This document shows, piece after piece, positions 3,662 through 48,804 of a stretch of 64,000 bases of DNA. The translations under genes and the position numbers were made by a program. Below the pieces are notes generated by a model. That model worked only from the letters and a program-made list of their open reading frames with translations. It was not told the origin of the DNA and searched no databases. Position 1 is the stretch's first letter. Each line of letters starts with the position of its first letter. This DNA comes from Flavisolibacter sp. (GTDB taxonomy: Bacteria > Bacteroidota > Bacteroidia > Chitinophagales > Chitinophagaceae): the NCBI GenBank assembly GCA_028288675.1, contig JAQBNG010000127.1, forward strand, positions 21,654 to 85,653, read 5' to 3'.

Positions 3662-4765
3662 CTAATTAAAATCGTCCAACGTTTTATCTTCCCGTAAACC
3701 CTGGAAAGACGGGTGGCGCATCAAGCCATCTTTTGTCCGCTCTGTATATTTCACCTCGCAAACAAAATGGGGCTTTACCCACATAGTTGGCGCCCCGGTA
3801 TCTGGCTTAATGTTAAAAGGGCACTCGGAAGTAAACAAAGAATTCATTTTTTTAAAGATTTCCTTCTGCGTCCGTGCCGTAAAACCTGTTCCTACCTGGC
3901 CAATAAATTCAATGCCTTTCTCTGTGGGAACTCCAAGCACCAATGATGAAAAAAGGCGGTCGGTGTCTTTGTTTTTAGTATAGCCGCAAATGATTGCTTC
4001 ATGCCTTTCTTCTACTTTTATTTTGCACCAGTTTGTGGTACGGTAACCGGCTTGATAAATAGAATCTGCCCTTTTTGCCACAATACCTTCGAGGTTACCA
4101 CTTTTTGCAGCTTCAAAGAATTGCTTTCCATATTCATCAATTGAATCGCTGAACCGTATCAAACCTCCATCGGGAATTATCTTTTTAAGAATTTCTTTTC
4201 GCTGGTGCAATGGTTTCCTGGTCAGGTCAATTCCTTCCAGCCAAAGCAAATCAAACAGGTAATAAAACAAGTGGCCGTCTCCTGTGCGGCTCCATTGCTG
4301 AAGCCCTCCAAAATCAGGTTTCCCCTCGCTATCCAATACTACTATCTCGCCATCAACTACGGCATTTACCGGCCAGCCCTGTAGGGCCTCATACACCGGA
4401 AAAAATTTACGGTCGAAAGAGTTATTGTTTCTTGAACGGATAGAAACATCACCATCACTTAAATAAGATAAAGCCCTGTAGCCATCCCACTTAATTTCAA
4501 ATTGCCAGGCCGCATCATTAAACGGTTCTTCAATTACAGAAGCCAGCATGGGTTTTAGATTCGTTGGCATCGCCGATAATTCCCCGCCTTTAAAATCACG
4601 CAGGATAAAGTCAACAACGGTTTGAAGATCTTTACGGATCCCTGTTGCAATAACAAGGCTGCCGGGCTCTTTTGTAGTAGTAGCTCTTTTTTTTCCGGGT
4701 AAAGTTTTTAAACTTTTTCCGTTGAATAAAGTGTTGCTGTTGGAAGGCTTTTTTTGTACACTCAT
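3662..4765 (-). CDS. ligD: ATP-dependent DNA ligase, stand-alone LigD ligase plus OB domains (NHEJ type)
   Basis: LKPMLA, EIKWDGYRA (KxDG), DGEIV, FDLLWL, EGIVAKR, WCKIK, MRHPSFQGLREDK. No polymerase or phosphoesterase domain. Confidence 0.85.
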   Translation of the reverse strand: MSVQKKPSNSNTLFNGKSLKTLPGKKRATTTKEPGSLVIATGIRKDLQTVVDFILRDFKGGELSAMPTNLKPMLASVIEEPFNDAAWQFEIKWDGYRALSYLSDGDVSIRSRNNNSFDRKFFPVYEALQGWPVNAVVDGEIVVLDSEGKPDFGGLQQWSRTGDGHLFYYLFDLLWLEGIDLTRKPLHQRKEILKKIIPDGGLIRFSDSIDEYGKQFFEAAKSGNLEGIVAKRADSIYQAGYRTTNWCKIKVEERHEAIICGYTKNKDTDRLFSSLVLGVPTEKGIEFIGQVGTGFTARTQKEIFKKMNSLFTSECPFNIKPDTGAPTMWVKPHFVCEVKYTERTKDGLMRHPSFQGLREDKTLDDFN

Positions 4766-5061
4766 ACAAACACCGCCTCCAATTATATGCCTATGCCAGT
4801 GCGCTTTTTTAAGCGATACGCATAAACGGTTGAGCTTTAAATAGTTTGCAATTTATACACAGGATATACAGGGGAAAGCGGGAAAATGTGAATAATGCAG
4901 CTAAGTAATTAAAAGTCAATCCGTATATAATTTTTGTTGAATAGATAACGGCTGCCCTAATTGTAAGCTTATATTTTGGGCGTATCCCGGGGCGGGGCGG
5001 GCTATCCGCTTCAATCTTTTTGTACCGGTGCGGATACAAAAAGGATTTCTGCTTCTATCCC

Positions 5062-6378
5062 TTACGCAACAGCCGGCCCACCTGGATGGTTAGAATGGGC
5101 TGGCAGCAAAATTAAAAACCGGGCACCCTCCCCTTCTTTGCTATGTGCGGCAATTAGCCCATTGTGCTTCTCAACAATTTTTTTAGTGATGGCAAGGCCG
5201 ATGCCGGTTCCTTCGTAAGTTTCTTTTGAATGCAGGCGCTCGAAAAGCGAAAAGATTTTAGCCGCGTATTTTTCATCAAACCCGATGCCGTTGTCAGAGA
5301 TAGTAAGAAGGCAAAAAGCGCCTTCAGGATCTTCTTCGCTGTCGAATGATTTATCTCGTACCAGCTTTGCGGTTATGTCGATAATTGATGTCTTTTCTTT
5401 TCCTGCAAACTTCAGGGAGTTTGACAAAAGGTTTTGAAACATCTGGCGTATTTGTCCGCGGTTTACATATAAACAGGGTAGCTCGCCCACGTTAATCACC
5501 GCTTTTTTCTCAGCTATAAATAAATCAAAATCATCTAGTAATTCTTTTATCAACACATTCAAATCAATACATTCAAAAGGGTTATCGTTAGCCGATAGTT
5601 TGGAGTAATTAAGTACATCAATTATCAGCGCTTTCATACGGCCGGCCGAATAAATGATCTTCTCTAAATATTTTTTCGATTCGGGTGTTAGCTGCGCTCC
5701 GCCTCTGTCGTTTAGCAGGTTGCTGAACAATTGGATCTTTCGTAGCGGCTCCTGCAGATCATGCGATGCCACGGAAGCGAATTGCTGCAGATCGTGGTTG
5801 CTTAATTCAAGTGCATGATTAATTTCTGCCAACTGTTTGTTATTGGAGCTGAGTTGCTGCTGCACTTTTTTTTGGGCTGTCAGATCGGTAAGAATAATAC
5901 TTAGCGAAACCCCTTCCTCTAACGCTAATTTGGTAAGTGATAATTGCACCGGTGTAAAATGATCGCCAGCGGTTAATAACACTTCGCCTTTGCAATCCTG
6001 GGTCCAGCATCTTTCAAAAAGAGCCTGGTAATCATCTACATTTTCCGGTGCTATAAATTGATGGAAAGGCAAGCTTATTACATTAGACAAAGGCATCTTA
6101 ACCAGGGAAGCAAATTGGGAATTACAATATAAGATCGAACCTTTTGAATTGAGGGTCACCGCGCCTTCGGTCATCTTTTCTATAAAAACCCGAAAGGCCT
6201 GGTCAGCTGATCTGAGCGTATATAATTGGTGACCATTTGTACCTTCCACTACCAGCGCATCTACCTGGCCGGTGCGAATGGCTTCAATAGTTTCGTGCGC
6301 CTCTTGTAACTGCAGCTTTAATTCTTCTATCTCAGCTTGCAGGTCTTCGTTTAATCTTGTCACTGAATCTGTTTTCAT
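5062..6378 (-). CDS. Soluble PAS-domain sensor histidine kinase, last gene of the kai operon
   Basis: PAS region; H-box ASHDLQEPLRKI; N-box QMFQNLLSNSLKF; G1 DNGIGF; G2 GTGIGLAI. No transmembrane segment. The ATG directly abuts the upstream kaiB stop. Confidence 0.92.
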   Translation of the reverse strand: MKTDSVTRLNEDLQAEIEELKLQLQEAHETIEAIRTGQVDALVVEGTNGHQLYTLRSADQAFRVFIEKMTEGAVTLNSKGSILYCNSQFASLVKMPLSNVISLPFHQFIAPENVDDYQALFERCWTQDCKGEVLLTAGDHFTPVQLSLTKLALEEGVSLSIILTDLTAQKKVQQQLSSNNKQLAEINHALELSNHDLQQFASVASHDLQEPLRKIQLFSNLLNDRGGAQLTPESKKYLEKIIYSAGRMKALIIDVLNYSKLSANDNPFECIDLNVLIKELLDDFDLFIAEKKAVINVGELPCLYVNRGQIRQMFQNLLSNSLKFAGKEKTSIIDITAKLVRDKSFDSEEDPEGAFCLLTISDNGIGFDEKYAAKIFSLFERLHSKETYEGTGIGLAITKKIVEKHNGLIAAHSKEGEGARFLILLPAHSNHPGGPAVA

Positions 6379-21843: not shown

Positions 21844-22890
21844 CTATGCAAGCACTTTAATACATTTTTCAGTTTTAGAAACGCATCTTCCAATAGGTGA
21901 TAAATAATCTGCAAGTCCTGCATTGTTGAATACAGCTTGCAGGGCTTCTGCATTTTTAGCAGCAATCAGCAACCCTCCATTTGTTTGGGGATCGGGCAAA
22001 ACATTGAGTGCTTCTGCTAAATCCACACTATCGTCTATTTGTACTTTACTGCCATAGCTGTTCCAGTTGCGGGAGGTAGCGCCGGGAATAGTACCATGGT
22101 TCAAATAATCTTTTAGCCCCATAATTTTTGGCAACGCGGAGTACCTTAGCTCTATACTCACATTGCTGCCTTCAGCCATTTCAACCAGGTGACCCATCAG
22201 CCCAAAACCGGTAACATCGGTCATGGCATGAACATCATCCAGGCCGCCTAATAATTCACCAACCTTGTTTAAGGTTGTCAATTGTTTCAACAAAACCGTA
22301 TAGTGTTCTGCCTGCAGTAAACCCCTTTTTATTGCGGTTGACAAAACTCCTACGCCAAGTGGTTTGGTAAGAAAGAGCAGGTCGCCTTCTTGTGCTGCAT
22401 TGTTCTTTTTTATATGCGCCGGATGTACAGTTCCGGTTACAGCTAAACCAAAAATAGGTTCAAGGGAATCAATTGTATGGCCGCCAGCCAACGGAATGCC
22501 GGCTTCAGCACAAATACTTCTGCCACCCTCTAAAACCTGTTGCGCTACCTGGGGCGAAAGCTTGTTTACCGGCCAGCCAAGAATAGCAATTGCCATCAGT
22601 GGCTTTCCTCCCATGGCATATACATCACTGATGGCATTGGCTGCAGCAATGCGTCCAAAAGCAAAAGCATCATCCACAATCGGCATAAAAAAGTCAGTGG
22701 TTGAAATGATGGCCGTTTCATCGTTGATCTGATACACTGCTGCATCATCGCTGCTTTCATTACCTACCAACAAGGAGGCAAATGAACTTTTGTCTTCGGT
22801 TTTCAACATTTGCTGCAAAACCGATGGCGCTATTTTACAGCCGCACCCACCGCCTTTTGAAAACTGTGTAAGCTTTATTTCTTCCTGCAT
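21844..22890 (-). CDS. selD: Selenide, water dikinase (Cys form)
   Basis: GGGCGCKI, SDDAAVY, TTDFFMP, NAISDVYAMGG, GGHT, TDVTGFGL, DPQTNGGLL. Confidence 0.97.
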   Translation of the reverse strand: MQEEIKLTQFSKGGGCGCKIAPSVLQQMLKTEDKSSFASLLVGNESSDDAAVYQINDETAIISTTDFFMPIVDDAFAFGRIAAANAISDVYAMGGKPLMAIAILGWPVNKLSPQVAQQVLEGGRSICAEAGIPLAGGHTIDSLEPIFGLAVTGTVHPAHIKKNNAAQEGDLLFLTKPLGVGVLSTAIKRGLLQAEHYTVLLKQLTTLNKVGELLGGLDDVHAMTDVTGFGLMGHLVEMAEGSNVSIELRYSALPKIMGLKDYLNHGTIPGATSRNWNSYGSKVQIDDSVDLAEALNVLPDPQTNGGLLIAAKNAEALQAVFNNAGLADYLSPIGRCVSKTEKCIKVLA

Positions 22891-22895
22891 AAAAT

Positions 22896-24038
22896 TTATT
22901 GGGTTACCTGAACGTGCGAAATTATGAAAGCATTTTTAGGTGTTACGGTTTCGCATGCAATGGTGGTAAGTAAAGCATCCAGGCTTTGCCGGGAATGCAA
23001 ACCTTTCAAATAGTGTTTATCATAATAATGTAACAGAATACGAAAGCACTCTTTTACATTATTTTCTTCCAAATGTTGCAAAGCTGTTTTTGTTTCTAAT
23101 GGCCCCAGACGCTTTTTGATTCGTTCAATGGCATCGGATAATTTCTCTTTTTCACACTGGCTGTATTCTTCAGTAATATGTTGAAGGCGCTCTTCAAACG
23201 GAATGTCTAAAAAGTAAATAGGTGATCCCCGCATATTTTGCCACAGGCCACCGGGAATATTCAGGTTGCCGATGCGCTGGCTTTCATCTTCTAACCACAA
23301 AGAGTTTGGAGTTTGGAGTTTAGGGTTTGGGGTTATCTCCGCAGGTTCATCATTCACTATTGGCCAATTACATCTCTCATGGCTCACGGCTAAAAGCTCT
23401 AAGCTGAGCCTGTTCTCAAACATTTCCTGCGATGGCTGCATAGGCATATTAATACTGCCGAATGCAGAACCTTTATGTGAAGCGAGACCTTCTAAATCTA
23501 TCACTGCTTCACCAGCTTGTTGCAGTTGTTGAAGCACTTCTGTTTTACCTGAACCAGTGTAGCCGCCCAAGATTTTAAAAGGGTAAGGTTGTTCAAAAGA
23601 TTTTAATACATAGTTGCGAAAAGCCTTGTAGCCACCTGCCAAAACCGTTACGTTAAACCCGTACATATTTAGCAACCACGAAACAGCACCACTACGCATA
23701 CCACCCCGCCAGCAGTAGAGAAATACGCATTTAGCAATTGGCAACTGGCAATTTTTTTCGATGCTTATTGCAGATTGCTTATTGCCAATTAATCTCTCCA
23801 CTTCCTCCACCATCCCCCGCATCTTAGGACCAAAATAATCAAGGCCTATTTTGATAGCATCTTCCCTGCTTCTTTGCTTATAAGCAGTACCTACAACCCG
23901 CCGTTCTTCATCGGTAAACAAGGGGAAACTTATAGCACCGGGAATGCAGGCATGATTGTATTCCGATGGCGAACGCACATCGAGTAATAGACCCTCACTG
24001 CTTCCCTTTAAAAATTCTTCAACCTGTGTCCGCCTCAT
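22896..24038 (-). CDS. selU: tRNA 2-selenouridine(34) synthase with two in-frame repeat-derived insertions
   Basis: DVRSPSEY rhodanese domain, YCWRGGMRS, GGYKAFR, GYTGSGKT P-loop, DLEGLASHKGSAFG, EDESQRIG. Confidence 0.95.
   Translation of the reverse strand: MRRTQVEEFLKGSSEGLLLDVRSPSEYNHACIPGAISFPLFTDEERRVVGTAYKQRSREDAIKIGLDYFGPKMRGMVEEVERLIGNKQSAISIEKNCQLPIAKCVFLYCWRGGMRSGAVSWLLNMYGFNVTVLAGGYKAFRNYVLKSFEQPYPFKILGGYTGSGKTEVLQQLQQAGEAVIDLEGLASHKGSAFGSINMPMQPSQEMFENRLSLELLAVSHERCNWPIVNDEPAEITPNPKLQTPNSLWLEDESQRIGNLNIPGGLWQNMRGSPIYFLDIPFEERLQHITEEYSQCEKEKLSDAIERIKKRLGPLETKTALQHLEENNVKECFRILLHYYDKHYLKGLHSRQSLDALLTTIACETVTPKNAFIISHVQVTQ
23302..23400 (-). repeat. In-frame heptamer repeat block inside selU
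   Basis: Five tandem 7-mers GAGTTTG GAGTTTG GAGTTTA GGGTTTG GGGTTAT (23302-23336), plus degenerate TTCA.. and CTCA.. periodic units. Translated as LLAVSHERCNWPIVNDEPAEITPNPKLQTPNS. Confidence 0.75.
23731..23792 (-). repeat. In-frame heptamer inverted repeat (NNGCAAT units) inside selU
   Basis: Sense strand TGGCAAT AAGCAAT CTGCAAT AAGCAT cgaaaaaa ATTGCCA GTTGCCA ATTGCTA. Encodes LIGNKQSAISIEKNCQLPIAK. Confidence 0.85.
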
Positions 24039-24056: not shown

Positions 24057-24083
24057 AAAAAGAAAGGCCCCGTAATGGGGCCT
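24057..24083 (-). terminator. Intrinsic terminator of the lipoprotein gene
   Basis: AGGCCCC/GGGGCCT stem followed on the minus strand by TTCTTTTT. Confidence 0.7.
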
Positions 24084-24119: not shown

Positions 24120-24761
24120 TTAATCCTGTTTCACTTTTCCGTTTTCATCAATCTTTGTTTTCTCGCCTGTTTTTTTATCCTTTATTTTCATTTTACCATC
24201 CGTTTCAAGCTTGATCTTTGTATCCTCGTCTTTCATTTTTACATCTCCATCTGTTTCAGTTTTTACCTTCATGCCATCGGTGGATTCCTTCCACTTTTTT
24301 TCCATATCGGTGTCTTCTGTTTTCCAACGGGTGTCATAATCTACCCACTTATCGCCATCGCCTTTATATCTCAGGCTGTTACCTTCCATTTGAGCTTCTC
24401 CCACCTGGTTCCAGTTTTCGCCACCATATACCCACCAGTTGCGGTTGTCAACATAGCGCCAAACTGGCTCACCGGCATCATCGGTAATGCTACCGGTACT
24501 GCGGTCAACCTTCAAACTTTTATACGCTTTACCGGTTCTTGGGTTGAGATAATACCCTTGCTGGCTATTTCTTTCCACACTATCAGCCATAGCAGCGTAC
24601 CTGCTTTCACTTGTAGTTGAAGTTACCGGTGTAGTAGCAGAACTAGCAGTAGTCGTACTACTCGAATCGGTTGTTCCTGATGTTGTACCTGTATCGTTGC
24701 ATGCGGTAAAACTTATGGCTACAGCGGCTGCAGCGCAAAAGCTTAAAAATTTTCTTTTCAT
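24120..24761 (-). CDS. Hypothetical lipoprotein with Ser/Thr linker and Lys/Asp-rich tail
   Basis: Lipobox FTAC, T/S-rich linker, Trp-rich core, KxKxExDG-like repeats at the C-terminus. Confidence 0.8.
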   Translation of the reverse strand: MKRKFLSFCAAAAVAISFTACNDTGTTSGTTDSSSTTTASSATTPVTSTTSESRYAAMADSVERNSQQGYYLNPRTGKAYKSLKVDRSTGSITDDAGEPVWRYVDNRNWWVYGGENWNQVGEAQMEGNSLRYKGDGDKWVDYDTRWKTEDTDMEKKWKESTDGMKVKTETDGDVKMKDEDTKIKLETDGKMKIKDKKTGEKTKIDENGKVKQD

Positions 24762-24815: not shown

Positions 24816-24920
24816 CAGCAATCAGCAATAAGCAATTTACAATGGGCAAGCGTAAAATTAAATAGGCAAAGAAATCAGTCATTTCAACCTGATTTATTTG
24901 CCTATTGCTTATTGCCAATT
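24816..24920. repeat. NNGCAAT heptamer inverted repeat with an inner 18-bp stem, downstream of rho
   Basis: CAGCAAT CAGCAAT AAGCAAT TTACAAT ... ATTGCTT ATTGCCA ATT. Inner stem AATAGGCAAAGAAATCAG / CTGATTTATTTGCCTATT pairs at 17 of 18 positions. Confidence 0.8.
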
Positions 24921-24931
24921 TCTTATTAGTC

Positions 24932-26650
24932 TTACCTGTTCATCGAAGCCAAAAATTCTTCGTTGCTCTTCGTACCCCGCATACGCTTCAACAATTCATT
25001 CATTGCTTCTTCCGCATTCATATCATTAAGGTAAACACGCAGCAGGTTCATGCGTTGGAGCACTTCTTTATCCAGCAATAAATCATCGCGGCGGGTTGAT
25101 GAAGAGACTAAATCTATAGCGGGGAAAACTCTCCTGTTTGAAAGGCGGCGGTCTAACTGCAATTCCATGTTACCGGTTCCTTTGAATTCCTCAAAAATCA
25201 CCTCGTCCATTTTAGAACCGGTATCAACCAGGGCTGTGGCGATAATGGTTAATGAACCGCCATGTTCAATTTTACGGGCAGCGCCAAAAAACTGTTTTGG
25301 CTTCTGCATCGCATTGGCTTCCACACCACCAGACAATACTTTACCCGATGAAGGCGCCACCGTATTATGGGCACGGGCCAGGCGGGTAATAGAGTCTAAC
25401 AGAATAACTACGTCGTGCCCGCACTCAACCAAACGCTTTGCTTTTTGCAGCGCCACCGTAGAAACTTTTACGTGCTTTTCAGCAGGCTCGTCAAAAGTAG
25501 AGGCGATAACTTCGGCCCGTACACTACGTTCCATATCGGTAACTTCCTCAGGACGTTCATCTACCAATACCACCATCAGGTAACACTCAGGATGGTTTTT
25601 TGCAATGGCATTGGCCACTGCTTTCAGCAACATAGTTTTACCTGTTTTTGGCTGCGCCACAATTAGTCCGCGCTGGCCTTTACCAATAGGCGTGAACAGG
25701 TCCATAATGCGGGTGCTGTAATTATTGGCTTCATCAAAAAGGTTCAGCTTTTCGTAAGGGAAAAGTGGAGTGAGGTAATCGAATGGAATACGATCCCTTA
25801 CTTCTTCGGGGCTTTTACCGTTAATGCTTTCCACCTTTAATAAAGCAAAATATTTTTCGCCTTCTTTTGGCGGACGAACAGAACCCGTAACGGTATCGCC
25901 GGTTTTTAAACCAAAGAGTTTTATTTGTGAAGGTGATACGTAAATATCATCGGGAGAGGACAGGTAGTTATAATCAGAGGAGCGAAGGAAACCATAGCCA
26001 TCGGGCATCATTTCCAATACGCCTTCGGCCATAATGATACCATCAAACTCAATATTGAATGCCTGCTCCCGGCGTTGTGGTTGTTGTAATTGTTGTGGTG
26101 GCTGTTGTTGTTGCGGAAAAAATTTATTGATCTGGCTGCCTCTTTCCGGTATTTCAACGGGTGTCGATTCGGTTTGAGGTCCCTGTACTTTTTCCTCAGT
26201 TGAAGCATCGGTTGCCGGCACGTCGGTTACATTGCCATCTGGAACTTTGTTGTCAAATATTTCAGGCTGCTCCTCTTCGTGTTTTTTGCGGCCGCGTTTT
26301 AAAGGAGGCTTTTCCTGTGTTTTGCCCGCTGCCTTTTTAGCAACAACAGGTCTTTTTATTTCTTCTGTTACGGGTGGCGGAGGTGCCGGGGCCGGCTCAG
26401 AAGTATCTTCTACCACAGCCTCTTCAGTGGAGTTTGCAGTAGTTGCTTTTATTATACGCCTACGCTTGGGTTTATCGTCTGTTGCAGCCGCAGAAGCTTT
26501 TTGATTGCTGCCTCCAATAGCCTGCTTATCAAGAATCTTATAGACTAGTTCCTGCTTTGGTGATTTTTTGAAATTTTCAATTTTTAATGCTTCGGCTACA
26601 TCCTGCAATTCGGGGAGCAGCATGTCGTTCAACTGCAAAATATCGTACAT
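24932..26650 (-). CDS. rho: Transcription termination factor Rho with a long N-terminal insertion
   Basis: [52 protein letters not shown]. Confidence 0.98.
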
Positions 26651-29344: not shown

Positions 29345-29422
29345 ATACGTATTTATAAGCCGAGGAGTTCCCTTGAAGTAATCAAGATATTTCTGCGGGA
29401 GACTTATCTCAGAAGAATAGCT

Positions 29423-29445
29423 GTTGACGGCAGGTGGCCGTCAAC
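29423..29445. terminator. Hairpin between convergent asnS and usp
   Basis: GTTGACGGC-AGGTG-GCCGTCAAC. Confidence 0.55.
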
Positions 29446-29456
29446 TCTACCTTATC

Positions 29457-39210: not shown

Positions 39211-39317
39211 CCTATTCCTCCAGCTGTTTCCTTAAAGAAATTTAACGGTAAAATAGTATCAATTCATTCCACTTTACGGCAAAGTTTCATTTAGTTTTGT
39301 CGATTGGCCTTTTTGGT

Positions 39318-39370
39318 CAATTGGCAATAAGCAACCCTTTTGTCAATTGCAAATTGCCGATTGCAAATTG
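39318..39370. repeat. NNGCAAT heptamer inverted repeat upstream of the SNF2 gene
   Basis: CAATTGGCAATAAGCAAC ... ATTGCAA ATTGCCG ATTGCAA ATTG. Confidence 0.75.
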
Positions 39371-39375
39371 ATTCC

Positions 39376-45471: not shown

Positions 45472-48378
45472 ATGAAGAAAACATACTTCGCCCTGCTGGT
45501 GCTTATCTCTTTCTCCGCATCGGCGCAAAAAATTTCGGGCACGGTAAAAGGAAGCTTACAGGATTCCACATCGGCCACACTCTTAAGCGATGCAACAGTT
45601 TCTGTAGTGAGCCTTCCCGACTCCTCCCTTATTTCTTTTACGCTTACCCGCAGCAATGGCTATTTCGAAATTAAAAACTTAGCCGCCGGCAACTACCTTT
45701 TAGTGGCTTCGTTCAGCGGGTTGCAAACCAAAAAAAAGGCTTTCACCATCAGTGCCGAAAAGGCTACCGAGGATTTCAGTATCATAAAAATGGATAGAGC
45801 ATACAAGGGCATGCAGGAAGTTGTTATTACCGATCAGTCTCCCGTAAAAATTAATGGCGATACCATCTCTTTTAACGCCAATATGTTCAAGACAAAACCA
45901 AATGCTACAGTAGAAGATTTGCTGAAGAAGCTACCGGGCATGCAGGTAGAAAAAGACGGCACTGTAAAAGCGCAGGGCGAAACTGTACAAAAAGTTTATG
46001 TTGATGGAAAAGAATTTTTTAATAACGATCCTAAACTGGCTACAAAGAATTTATCGGCTGATATGGTGGACGCGGTAGAAGTGTTTGATGATATGAGTGA
46101 GCAGGCCAAGTTTAATAAAATTGATGATGGCAGCCGTACCAAAGCGCTCAATTTAAAATTGAAAAAAGATAAAAAGAAAGGTGTCTTTGGAAAAGTATAT
46201 GCAGGCTACGGAACCGACAAACGTTATGATGCAGGATTATCAACCAACTTTTTTAAAGGCGCAACACAAACATCGGTGATTGCAAAAGCCAATAACACGA
46301 GCAACATTGGCTTTACACTTGGCGATATGCTGGGCATGTTCAACGGCCCTGGCGGCGGCGGCATAATGGGCGCTATGGGCGGTGGTTCATTAGGCGGAAG
46401 CAGCGGCAGCGGAAGTTTTGGTGGGGGTTCCGGCGCAATGGGTGGAATGAATATGATTCGTGCCGGTGGTTCCGGTGGTGGCAGCAACCTTGGTGGATTT
46501 AATCTTGGTTCAACAGGTGGCGGCGTTACGGCTTCATCCCAGGTTGGTATTAATTACCGCGATACCTGGAGCAAGTATTTTGAAGTGAACGGCAGTTATT
46601 TTTTCAACCATGCGCAAACCGAAAATGACCGTTATAGCTTTCGACAAAATATAGCTGCGGATTCTTCTATTAACACGGCTGACAGAACCTATTCTAAAAC
46701 CCGCAACAATAATCACCGGTTCAACCTGAATATGGTTTATACCATTGATTCGTTTAACTCCATCATCTATCAGCCCAATTTAAATTTTCAGAGCTCGCAG
46801 TCATTTAGCGATGACACATTAAACAGCGCCGTGGTGAAGAACGGTTCTTCATATACCAATGCAGAAAACCGTACACTCACAAACAATTCCGGCGATGGCT
46901 ACAATTTCAGCAACAATTTAATCTGGCGGAAACGTTTTCGTAAACCGGGCCGCACTTTATCGGTAAACGTTTCTAATACATGGAGCGATAACAACCGTGA
47001 TGCGTATAGCATTATCACCTCTAGATTTTATACCCCAAACGGCTTTAAGTGGATGGACCGCCTGTCGGATTTCGTTACCCGTACGGAAAGCAACACCAAC
47101 AATTACAGCGCAGGCTTTTCTTATACCGAACCTATCGCAAGGGATAAGGTAATGGAGTTTAATTATACCCATAACGATAACCACAGCAATTCGGACAGGA
47201 AAACTTTCAATAAGAATATAGCAAGCGGTACTTACGATGCCCTTGTTGATTCGCTTACCAATCGTTTTGAAAACAGCAATATATACGACCGTATCGGAAC
47301 CAACTTTAGAGTGGTAAAAAAGAAATATAATTACCAGTTAGGTTTTGCCGTGCAGCAAACTTCATTAGAGAGCGACAACCTTTCAAAAGGCAAAAACATT
47401 TTACAGAAAAATACAAACCTGTTTCCAACAGCCTCGTTTAATTACCAGTTCCAACGCAGCCGTAGCTTACGCATTAATTATCGCGGCCGTACGGCCCAAC
47501 CTACTATCTCGCAACTGCAGGATGTAACGGATTACAGCAGCTATCCCTATATATCAAAAGGAAATCCTTCCTTAACCCAGGAGTTCTCGCACAATGTAAC
47601 ACTGAGTTATAATTTCTTCGACATGATCAAATTTCGCAACTTGTTTGCTTTTGTCACCTACAGCACTACGCAAAATAAGATTGCAAATGCTATACAAAAC
47701 CTGCCGGGGGGAGTTCAGTTAACCTCGCCTGTAAATGTAGAGGGTGTATATGCGGTGTCGGGTAATTTCAATATCGGCTTTCCCATTAAACAAATGAAGG
47801 GAGGAAATTTTAATGCTACCAGCCGCATTGGCTATAACCAGGATGCAAGTATTGTAGACAGGATAAAGAATTTCACCCGTAATTTATCGTTAGGTGAAGA
47901 CCTCCGCTTAAGCTACAACAAAGACAAATTAGATCTCGGCATATCGGCCAGCATCAGTTATAACCAGGTAAAGTACAGTTTGCAGGAACGCAACAATACG
48001 TCTTACTTCATGCATGTATATTCTGCCGATGCTACTTATACCTTACCTAAAAATTTCATCCTGTCAACCGATTTTGATTATACGTTCAATACAGGCCGTA
48101 CCGATGGCTTTAACCAGAATTACGCCATATGGAATGGCAGCATTGCCAAACAGGTTTTAAAAAATAAGCGGGGAGAAATAAAGGCTTCGGTGTTTGATAT
48201 CCTAAACCAAAACACCAGCGTTTATCGTAACGTGGCACAGAACTATATCGAAGATGTGCAAAACAGTGTATTGAAACGGTACTTCATGCTGACCTTTACT
48301 TACAACATTAACCGCATGGGTGGAAGAAGCATGCCGCCGATGATGGAAAGAGCGACAAAAGGGATAAGACTTAATTAG
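45472..48378 (+). CDS. Outer-membrane beta-barrel (TonB-receptor-like) protein with an N-terminal carboxypeptidase-regulatory-like domain and a Gly-rich insert
   Basis: Signal peptide, GDTISFNA...EDLLKKLPG, VDGKEFF, PxxxQLQDV, RYFMLTFTYN. Confidence 0.8.
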   Translation: MKKTYFALLVLISFSASAQKISGTVKGSLQDSTSATLLSDATVSVVSLPDSSLISFTLTRSNGYFEIKNLAAGNYLLVASFSGLQTKKKAFTISAEKATEDFSIIKMDRAYKGMQEVVITDQSPVKINGDTISFNANMFKTKPNATVEDLLKKLPGMQVEKDGTVKAQGETVQKVYVDGKEFFNNDPKLATKNLSADMVDAVEVFDDMSEQAKFNKIDDGSRTKALNLKLKKDKKKGVFGKVYAGYGTDKRYDAGLSTNFFKGATQTSVIAKANNTSNIGFTLGDMLGMFNGPGGGGIMGAMGGGSLGGSSGSGSFGGGSGAMGGMNMIRAGGSGGGSNLGGFNLGSTGGGVTASSQVGINYRDTWSKYFEVNGSYFFNHAQTENDRYSFRQNIAADSSINTADRTYSKTRNNNHRFNLNMVYTIDSFNSIIYQPNLNFQSSQSFSDDTLNSAVVKNGSSYTNAENRTLTNNSGDGYNFSNNLIWRKRFRKPGRTLSVNVSNTWSDNNRDAYSIITSRFYTPNGFKWMDRLSDFVTRTESNTNNYSAGFSYTEPIARDKVMEFNYTHNDNHSNSDRKTFNKNIASGTYDALVDSLTNRFENSNIYDRIGTNFRVVKKKYNYQLGFAVQQTSLESDNLSKGKNILQKNTNLFPTASFNYQFQRSRSLRINYRGRTAQPTISQLQDVTDYSSYPYISKGNPSLTQEFSHNVTLSYNFFDMIKFRNLFAFVTYSTTQNKIANAIQNLPGGVQLTSPVNVEGVYAVSGNFNIGFPIKQMKGGNFNATSRIGYNQDASIVDRIKNFTRNLSLGEDLRLSYNKDKLDLGISASISYNQVKYSLQERNNTSYFMHVYSADATYTLPKNFILSTDFDYTFNTGRTDGFNQNYAIWNGSIAKQVLKNKRGEIKASVFDILNQNTSVYRNVAQNYIEDVQNSVLKRYFMLTFTYNINRMGGRSMPPMMERATKGIRLN

Positions 48379-48403
48379 CAAAAGGCAATATGCAATTGGC
48401 AAT
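48376..48403 (+). repeat. Single arm of NNGCAAT heptamers directly after the beta-barrel stop codon
   Basis: TAGCAAA AGGCAAT ATGCAAT TGGCAAT. Confidence 0.7.
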
Positions 48404-48804
48404 AAAAAACGATCAGAGATCGGAGTAATGAAAGAAGCAATTGATAGGGAACTTTGAATTTGAGCGACCAACTCCCTACAGATTCGCTGGAGATAATATC
48501 CATAAAAAAGAAACCCTCAGTTGAGGGTTCTATCTGATCATGCGCTTTTTTGAAGGGAGGTAACTAACGGTTGACGAACCGTAAATTACGACGCCTAAAA
48601 TTGATTTCATGAAGCGCCATACGTTGTAGGATGGTTTGTACGAGCTGCTGTAAATCTGTGCAGCCTGTTTTGCGTACTCAATGTCTCTGTTTTTCATGCA
48701 GGTTATTTTAGTTTGTGGAAAATAGGTGGATAAACTTAGTCATTTACATTGAAATAACGAAGCCTTTGCCTATTTTGTTGTCGAAAACTTTTAATATCCA
48801 CTCT

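Follow-up and report, generated by a model that had tools for sequence, protein, structure and literature searches.

The window analysed in this study, 64,000 nucleotides of a Flavisolibacter contig (JAQBNG010000127.1), contains the gene selU (mnmH) for tRNA 2-selenouridine(34) synthase. Within this gene, in frame, lies a hairpin of tandem 7-nt units that also occur at intergenic positions of the same window (Table 1). SelU was identified by a full-length match to the equivalog model NCBIfam NF008750 (352 bits, cut-off 241; E 3e-105); it also scores above the cut-off of TIGR03167 (325 bits vs 220; E 7e-97), contains the Pfam rhodanese domain, and has its best homologues in Flavisolibacter and other Chitinophagaceae. 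In an alignment of 45 close orthologues, the motifs C109WRGGMRS, G159-T166, and E250-G257 are invariant. The original prediction of an insertion in the rhodanese domain that leaves the reading frame unbroken was borne out by the intact open reading frame (ORF) of 380 residues. With the ORF intact and the motifs invariant, a frameshifted or pseudogenised selU was ruled out, and so was an intein or intron, as such domains are absent and the peptide comprises only 21 residues.

The element, here called loop 1 after the part of the protein that it encodes, extends from 23726 to 23792, with four GCAATNN units separated by an A-rich spacer from four ATTGCNN units. Its sequence in coding direction (23792-23726) reads TTAATT GGCAATA AGCAATC TGCAATA AGCATCG AAAAAA ATTGCCA GTTGCCA ATTGCTA AATGC and codes for L83-K103 (LIGNKQSAISIEKNCQLPIAK), between ...MVEEVER and C104-VFLY-C109WRGGMRS. 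An inverted-repeat search found arms of 17 nt at 23736-23752 and 23774-23790 with 82% complementarity, and over 17-28 nt the complementarity is 71-82%; the copy thus has terminal inverted repeats forming a stem, as do the intervening sequences (IVSs) of 23S rRNA. In the hairpin, the conserved 5-nt cores are paired while the variable dinucleotides form 2x2 internal loops, and folding is moderate (z = -4.1 for the 66 nt alone, mononucleotide shuffles), which points to a somewhat decayed copy. The outermost pairing extends into the VER and FLY codons: 23795-23803 (V80-E81-R82, GTGGAGAGA) is largely complementary to 23717-23725 (F106-L107-Y108, TTTCTCTAC), which lengthens the stem. A weaker complementarity of these codons was seen in the related loci L081, L098, and L082; it could be due to chance or to a pre-existing small stem-loop which attracted the element.

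Table 1. Coordinates and units of the heptamer arrays, their host genes, and related loci.
Feature	Location	Strand	Composition, product, or context
selU / mnmH, tRNA 2-selenouridine(34) synthase, 380 aa	22896-24038	minus	rhodanese C109WRGGMRS, P-loop GGYTGSGKT, WLEDESQRIG
selD, selenophosphate synthetase, Cys type	21844-22890	minus	Pfam AIRS / AIRS_C; 5 nt downstream of selU, co-oriented
Loop-1 5' arm (coding strand)	23763-23792	minus	TTAATT + GGCAATA AGCAATC TGCAATA AGC(ATCG); L83-S92 (LIGNKQSAIS)
Loop-1 hairpin, A-rich apex	23754-23762	minus	ATCGAAAAAAA region; I93-K95
Loop-1 3' arm	23726-23753	minus	ATTGCCA GTTGCCA ATTGCTA AATGCGT; N96-C104 (NCQLPIAKC)
Loop-2 right array, (CCAAACN)x4-5 (coding strand)	23300-23334	minus	T236-N245 (TPNPKLQTPN)
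Loop-2 left part, decayed GTGAATN-type array	23346-23372	minus	AATTGGCCAATAGTGAATGATGAA; C223-E231
Heptamer hairpin	24816-24922		intergenic, just 3' of rho, before 213-aa lipoprotein-like gene; GCAATNN arms around inner stem, -46 kcal/mol
GCAATNN / ATTGCNN hairpin	39317-39371		intergenic, between 2-phosphosulpholactate phosphatase gene and SNF2 helicase gene (upstream of the latter)
Half-array GCAAAAG GCAATAT GCAATTG GCAATA	48378-48404		intergenic, directly after stop codon of outer-membrane beta-barrel gene
Loop-1 unit GGCAATN	window, L081, L098, L003, L019
Loop-1 unit GGCAACA	L002
Loop-1 unit GGCAGTA	L001, F. longurius BT320
Loop-1 unit GGCAGTT	L033, L082, L100
Loop-1 unit GGCAGTC	L004
Loop-1 unit GGGAGTC	L088, L009
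Loop-1 unit CGTTGGC / ATCAACG	L099
Loop-1 unit GTACGAA	L012, L092
Loop-1 unit GTTACGG	L025
Four-helix-bundle gene inside array pair, usually inverted	L001 3933-4431; L101 1444-1950; L103 1449-1923; L104 1463-1956
Four-helix-bundle gene inside array pair, usually inverted	L106 1449-2064; L110 ~1001-1486; L111 4-443 + 906-1495

Statistically, the loop-1 element stands out by its heptamer motif and not by its folding energy. Allowing up to 2 mismatches, the pattern GCAATNNGCAATNNGCAAT has 17 matches in the window versus 0.34 expected, and none of 100 shuffles reached 17, which rules out a chance origin of the motif. All matches lie within 23720-23792, 24818-24922, 39317-39371, and 48378-48403, i.e. 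the roughly 60-nt inverted repeat in selU shares its unit with just the three further places that had been named for it (24816, 39318, and 48376). The selU copy is made of the same GCAATNN / ATTGCNN inverted arrays as the intergenic copies and belongs to the heptamer-hairpin family of this genome. At gathering thresholds, no Rfam family was matched at any of the hairpins.

For comparison, the region was collected from the DNA of 100 loci and from 120 proteins in databases in addition to the 45 aligned orthologues. In most Chitinophagales and other Bacteroidota, loop 1, located between the ...VEEVExL helix and the strand before the catalytic Cys, comprises 5-11 residues (e.g. LKSDT in Flavihumibacter), and the rhodanese domain of PDB entry 3g5j has 15 residues fewer at this position. 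In a Flavisolibacter-like clade the loop has 19-63 residues, and loops of more than 13 residues occur in 145 of the 185 scorable sequences. The window protein carries about 15-17 extra residues relative to short-loop orthologues and 3g5j; the short-loop orthologues keep all catalytic motifs. Where DNA was available, loop 1 is usually a heptamer hairpin with units differing between genomes (Table 1). The indel expected from an orthologue alignment was therefore found against distant orthologues and 3g5j, but not as a split into short and long loops among close relatives. Close orthologues are equally long and also consist of heptamer-hairpin DNA, often with another unit, which contradicts a recent insertion private to this genome as well as simple alleles with and without the insertion. 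Long loops of non-repetitive DNA, which would have spoken against a repeat origin, are not what the orthologues have.

Within each species, the two arms of loop 1 carry an identical core in opposite orientation (cores GCAAT, GCAGT, GTTGG, CGTTG, GAGTC). Near-perfect stems of about 30 bp are present in L001, L019, and L033, with a folding energy of -44.9 kcal/mol (z = -9.2) in L001 and z = -7.5 in L033; decayed, non-folding, or short loops were found within the clade in L083, L087, L005, L007, L011, and L013. Between the window gene and L099, nucleotide identity is 77% outside the loops (about 76% at the amino-acid level), 74% in loop 2 (see below), and 26% in loop 1. Extra sequence is nested at the hairpin apex in L082, L100, and several database proteins. 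Some flavours of the loop differ by a single base changed in every unit (GGCAGTT to GGCCGTT, giving WPLA instead of WQLA with the frame unchanged), as homogenisation of a tandem array would produce. Peptide flavours, assigned by crude regular-expression classes, are barely clustered on a neighbour-joining tree of 326 columns (56 changes vs 71 expected with shuffled labels), and these counts are only indicative.

SelU is clearly an unusual host for such arrays. Over the 1.5 Mb of loci that were fetched, SelU accounts for 56 arrays, versus a handful of convincing ones in other long ORFs, although these counts are not independent events. The handful includes two at the selU-selD junction or the SelD N-terminus (L004 6089-6148 and L005 13064-13096); in L004, SelD apparently starts with about 20 array-encoded residues ahead of the conserved LTQFSHGAGCGCK, as the sole in-frame ATG lies upstream of the array. 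In L017, whose SelU loop is short, four ACAAGNN units at 2617-2643 are in frame (KQGTRHKKQD) within an ORF of 346 residues, in tandem and without a hairpin partner. In the window, L001, and L098, the SelU unit resembles flanking intergenic units, which is anecdotal. A set of 5.8 billion proteins was also searched with a composite hairpin peptide of the GCAAT type, which matched only hypothetical ORFs of 42-134 residues, with one Pfam-bearing exception of 130 residues (E = 3); the scores of SelU orthologues themselves are too low for them to appear among the matches, and the search thus neither confirms nor excludes other host proteins. The hypothetical ORFs come from Microcoleus, Oscillatoriales, Taibaiella, and many metagenomes, so the GCAAT-type unit is present in cyanobacteria, too. 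These small ORFs are probably spurious gene calls on intergenic arrays.

In perfect (GGCAATA)n or (GGCAGTA)n arrays, a TAG recurs every 21 nt whatever the frame, whereas in the SelU copies the variable dinucleotide is altered exactly at the TAG position (Q-S-A, Q-L-A). Only the used frame is open in the SelU arrays of the window and L001. Of the intergenic arrays of L001, the left arm (GGCAGTA orientation) is closed in all three frames and the right arm (TACTGCC orientation) is stop-free in all frames. The avoidance of stops in the used frame is a signature of selection for read-through. The conserved loop residues (G, N, Q, A, I / C, L, P) are those coded wholly by the 5-nt core, whereas variable ones span the NN positions. 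Codon choice in the loops tracks the heptamer core (72/105 vs 369/952, a partly circular comparison), and between the window and L081 synonymous sites are identical at 13/16 in loop 1 and at a fraction of 0.55 in the rest of the gene. These features argue for conservation at the DNA level, not at the peptide level. Loops of the GCAAT and GCAGT types nearly always encode one or two Cys; those of the CGTTGGC type (VDRWPLAE...TNDQRST) encode none and differ from the other flavour, yet occur in close relatives.

A structure of SelU was predicted with AlphaFold from the 45-sequence alignment (mean pLDDT 82.6, pTM 0.81), and its rhodanese core superposes on 3g5j with a TM score of 0.92. A pLDDT below 50 is restricted to residues 86-102 and 223-243, i.e. 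to loop 1 and to a second heptamer-derived loop, while the rest is confidently modelled. Loop 1 is placed between helix 58-84 and strand 105-108, which leads to Cys109, and loop 2 between helix 204-222 and the Walker-B strand. The model thereby supports the proposed surface-loop position of the in-frame palindrome in a conserved gene, and loop 1 would be translated as a disordered peptide. In the rhodanese fold, the active-site loop comes after the C-terminal end of the strand leading to the catalytic Cys. Since loop 1 precedes strand 105-108 and the active-site loop lies beyond its C-terminal end, the insertion, described as next to the active site, is close to it in sequence but would be at the other end of the strand in the structure.

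Loop 2 corresponds to residues 223-243 (about 23300-23372 of the window). In other lineages only one of its arms differs, and orthologues show full hairpins or other arm combinations; in L098 it is a hairpin with GTGAAT / TCACYAC arms. In the soil metagenomes that contain the genome, numerous further contigs match the CCAAACT / AGTTTGG array on both strands, with a depth of 4-15x that of its flanks, which identifies the array as a dispersed repeat. No indel or unit-number variant of either array was found in the contigs of eight soil metagenomes; contigs drop rare variants, so that slippage may have gone unseen.

The hairpin 3' of rho has a GGCAAAGAA...TTCTTTGCC-like inner stem in the window, L098, and L100 and is orthologous in L098 (100-200) and L100 (9134-9230). 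In L081 the same site (2034-2160) carries arrays of other units (GTGAATN, AAATCCG) and lacks this hairpin, i.e. the site persists while its arrays change. The hairpin may serve as the rho terminator. The Rho factor itself (24935-26650, minus strand, 572 aa) has about 160 low-complexity P/E/K/Q-rich residues between the Rho_N and RNA-binding domains, which are not heptamer-derived. Between rho and selU, an ORF of 213 residues at 24120-24761 (minus strand) encodes a lipoprotein-like protein with a K/D/E/T-rich C-terminal half and without Pfam match. It is followed, just upstream of selU, by a GC-rich terminator-like hairpin at 24065-24083, and thus selU-selD probably has its own promoter. The selU-selD synteny is kept in L098 and L100. 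The window has no tRNA genes, and Rfam detected no rRNA gene in it; its sole Rfam match is a Flavo-1 RNA (RF01705) at 4991-5072 on the minus strand (53.6 bits vs a gathering score of 42).

A link to a gene family emerged from L001, where inverted intergenic GGCAGTA arrays (3933-3965 and 4399-4431), with a unit identical to that of the L001 SelU loop, enclose an ORF of 130 residues. It encodes a 23S-rRNA-IVS / four-helix-bundle protein (PF05635, E 2e-33; TIGR02436) with weak similarity to Avd of diversity-generating retroelements. Homologues were fetched with their genomic context, giving 8 independent sites. At five of these sites arrays lie on either side of the four-helix-bundle gene, and at two more on one side; by background expectation, a location within 200 nt of any array has a probability of 0.037. 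Duplexes of the two flanks have energies between -30 and -85 kcal/mol. A PF05635 ORF accompanies the arrays in L001, L101, L103-L107, L110, and L111, but not in the SelU copy. L110 belongs to Cyclobacteriaceae and L111 is a metagenome-assembled genome of Deltaproteobacteria; their units GGCAGTT / GGCAATT and TTTGGAT belong to the families of the window loops 1 and 2. At the junction of the Usp and class-II tRNA synthetase genes, the array-gene-array arrangement is present in L001, L101, L104, and L105, while the orthologous site is empty in L100 (4752-4775, a 23-nt spacer) and in the window (29345-29456), which marks the arrangement as a discrete insertion. A more distant four-helix-bundle gene lies amid GGTGAAT-type arrays in L074 (18080-18720). 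Many homologues are found on contigs of 0.5-2 kb, consistent with assembly breaks at flanking repeats, and no PADLOC model matches the protein.

The IVS of Coxiella burnetii 23S rRNA is a selfish stem-loop of 428 nt with a terminal stem of 28 bp and an S23p ORF, is excised by RNase III, and contains tandem heptameric repeats (GACAGAT) in a number varying between strains (PMC4990558). Together with the arrays around four-helix-bundle genes, these heptamers suggest that the window hairpins can be read as ORF-less members of an IVS-type family. The literature searches returned no description of heptamer hairpins in Chitinophagaceae, of arrays around stand-alone four-helix-bundle genes, or of such elements in protein genes.

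We favour, with moderate confidence, the explanation that SelU tolerates the element as a passenger in two permissive loops, that the element goes back to an early ancestor of the clade and has been renewed ever since, and that selection acts on frame and stop codons only. The 62-nt segment would represent a dispersed stem-loop element in a somewhat decayed form without an ORF; the arms of this element are built as inverted tandem arrays of 7-nt units, each with five conserved and two variable bases. Both loops, which are array-occupied across the Flavisolibacter-like clade, would probably have been so since its early ancestor. Renewal may come about through slippage, which homogenises the units, through exchange with copies elsewhere, or through new insertion into the stem-loop already present, and would take the form of concerted unit change on both arms, arm replacement, and nesting of extra sequence in the apex. 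Selection would only keep the length a multiple of three and remove the stop codons of perfect arrays. The element family would be of the same kind as 23S rRNA IVSs, identical arrays acting in related genomes as terminal inverted repeats around an S23p / Avd-like gene.

Several observations weigh against this explanation. The window hairpin folds weakly (-18.2 kcal/mol over 81 nt, z = -1.65 with dinucleotide shuffles), and window loop 2 is not a hairpin, its arms carrying different, non-complementary units. The SelU copy of loop 1 is without an ORF, and no PF05635 homologue or four-helix-bundle gene is present in the window. At some four-helix-bundle genes (L074, partly L106) the arrays are direct and not inverted. 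No transposase or other mobilising enzyme turned up, although no systematic search was aimed at Y1 transposases. SelU-array units have mean distances of 2.25 to flanking arrays of their own locus and 2.07 to those of other loci, which is not a significant difference over 8 loci. SelU is far richer in arrays than about 1000 neighbouring genes, which a neutral passenger alone does not explain, and single-base variants in all units fit in-place homogenisation as well as re-insertion. Finally, the public runs that hold the sequence are soil metagenome DNA contigs only, with no RNA runs.

An origin in place and without mobility, in which replication slippage and fold-back template switching generate long simple-sequence repeats on the spot, slippage makes the units uniform, and similar units elsewhere reflect a shared mutational bias, appears rather unlikely. 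It would account for flavours that are one base apart in all units, such as GGCAGTT and GGCCGTT, for the exchange of only one arm of loop 2 between lineages, and for the varying unit number in Coxiella strains (PMC4990558), and in the passage of PMC4679880 which cites Mrazek 2007 the heptamer is the commonest long simple-sequence repeat period in bacteria. It fits poorly with identical units, even with identical termini (GAGTAGGCAGTA...TACTGCCTACTC), at unrelated loci and in different phyla, with the sharp-edged filled site versus its empty orthologue, and with the matches of the loop-2 unit to many metagenome contigs on both strands.

The abundance of arrays in SelU, their recurrence at the selU-selD junction or SelD N-terminus of L004 and L005, and the high synonymous identity of loop 1 would also be expected from a selected RNA or DNA structure that regulates the selU-selD operon through mRNA processing (e.g. 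by RNase III), ribosome pausing, or a heptamer-binding protein; moreover, hairpins persist at the same two codon positions at about 55-60% identity, with both arms changing together. We nevertheless regard such a function as improbable, as the units lack sequence conservation, loops are decayed, non-folding, or short in many members of the clade, the window copy folds weakly, the elements are also ordinary intergenic repeats, and the array counts are not independent. An adaptive peptide whose extra cysteines (NCQLPIAKC) modulate sulfur/selenium transfer or tRNA binding near Cys109 is very improbable: the loop is kept in most of the clade, lies 5 residues before the catalytic Cys in sequence, and nearly always has Cys in two flavours, but its pLDDT is below 50, Cys-free loops without similarity occur in close relatives, the conserved residues follow the 5-nt core, and short-loop orthologues keep all catalytic motifs.

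Beyond the tolerated passenger, we tentatively propose that the heptamer hairpins are the non-autonomous form of a selfish element that crosses phyla and whose full form carries a gene for a pentameric four-helix-bundle (S23p / Avd-like) protein; for 30 years this element would have been recognised in the guise of the 23S rRNA IVS alone. The 7-nt units might then be the binding register of this protein, and homing to stem-loops might explain both the occupancy of rRNA helices and the re-colonised SelU loops; such elements could build new disordered segments in frame. If the link holds, the function of S23p / Avd-like proteins and the origin of IVSs become directly testable. It would connect the period-7 repeats of Bacteroidota and cyanobacteria, unexplained stand-alone TIGR02436 genes (many copies per genome), and 23S rRNA IVSs, three subjects so far dealt with apart from each other. 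The SelU loops also provide a deep comparative series on how an in-frame repeat segment is kept open, renewed, and exchanged. Surprising aspects are the clade-wide occupancy of two sites in one enzyme with rapid unit turnover, and the association of arrays with four-helix-bundle genes, both observed over tens of loci and not over whole genomes. In practice, metagenome assemblies break at heptamer arrays and spurious small ORFs arise from them; the arrays should be masked in protein annotation and alignment.

Among known systems, the original prediction had pointed to Rickettsia palindromic elements (RPEs), which Ogata and co-workers are said to have described in protein-coding genes in 2000. 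The analogy holds for the outcome: RPEs are short palindromic repeats that occur intergenically and in frame in conserved genes, where they add a peptide at the surface without destroying the protein. The case presented here would add, independently and from outside Rickettsia, a second instance of a conserved enzyme in which a palindromic repeat is read through. RPEs measure 100-150 bp, fall into families with a consensus sequence, lack a 7-nt periodicity, and are not known from hosts other than Rickettsia. The present elements differ by heptamer-array arms, a clade-wide occupied site with changing units, an ORF-carrying form, and a Chitinophagaceae host. Cyanobacterial STRR heptamer repeats, attributed to a 1990 study by Mazel, and long simple-sequence repeats of period 7 are likewise tandem 7-nt units, mostly intergenic and dispersed, and the GCAAT-type ORFs of Microcoleus, Oscillatoriales, and Taibaiella belong in this context. 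They are described as tandem arrays, however, and the literature searched reports them neither as hairpins with a four-helix-bundle gene as cargo nor in frame within a conserved enzyme. For the SDR family of Nostoc, Elhai and co-workers (2008) reportedly saw very small repeats within or beside tandem heptameric repeats and nested in one another, recalling the loop-1 inserts of L082 and L100, though in another taxon and with other sequences. REP / REPIN sequences with RAYT share the dispersed, short, hairpin-forming, usually extragenic character and the tie to one small gene family; here, in contrast, the associated gene encodes an Avd-like four-helix bundle (PF05635) in place of a Y1 transposase, the arms consist of heptamers in tandem, and REPINs are essentially excluded from coding sequence.

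The 23S rRNA IVSs of Leptospira, Coxiella, Xanthomonas, and Brucella come closer to the present elements than RPEs do. Like these elements, they form stem-loops with terminal inverted repeats, and ORF-less forms are found among both; a selfish or mobile nature of IVSs has long been suspected, and the tandem heptamers beside the S23p ORF of Coxiella have their counterpart in the inverted arrays that flank PF05635 / TIGR02436 genes at several loci, distributed over several phyla. The window copy differs in that it resides in a protein-coding gene and not in a 23S rRNA helix, lacks the ORF, and has units unlike those of Coxiella. Removal by RNase III would destroy the selU mRNA, so that the window element, unlike an IVS, would be translated. 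Without an rRNA host and an ORF, it is not assigned to any one known kind. By these comparisons, the element is best described as RPE-like in outcome, similar in anatomy to STRR / period-7 repeats set out as a hairpin, and a relative of the 23S rRNA IVSs by association.

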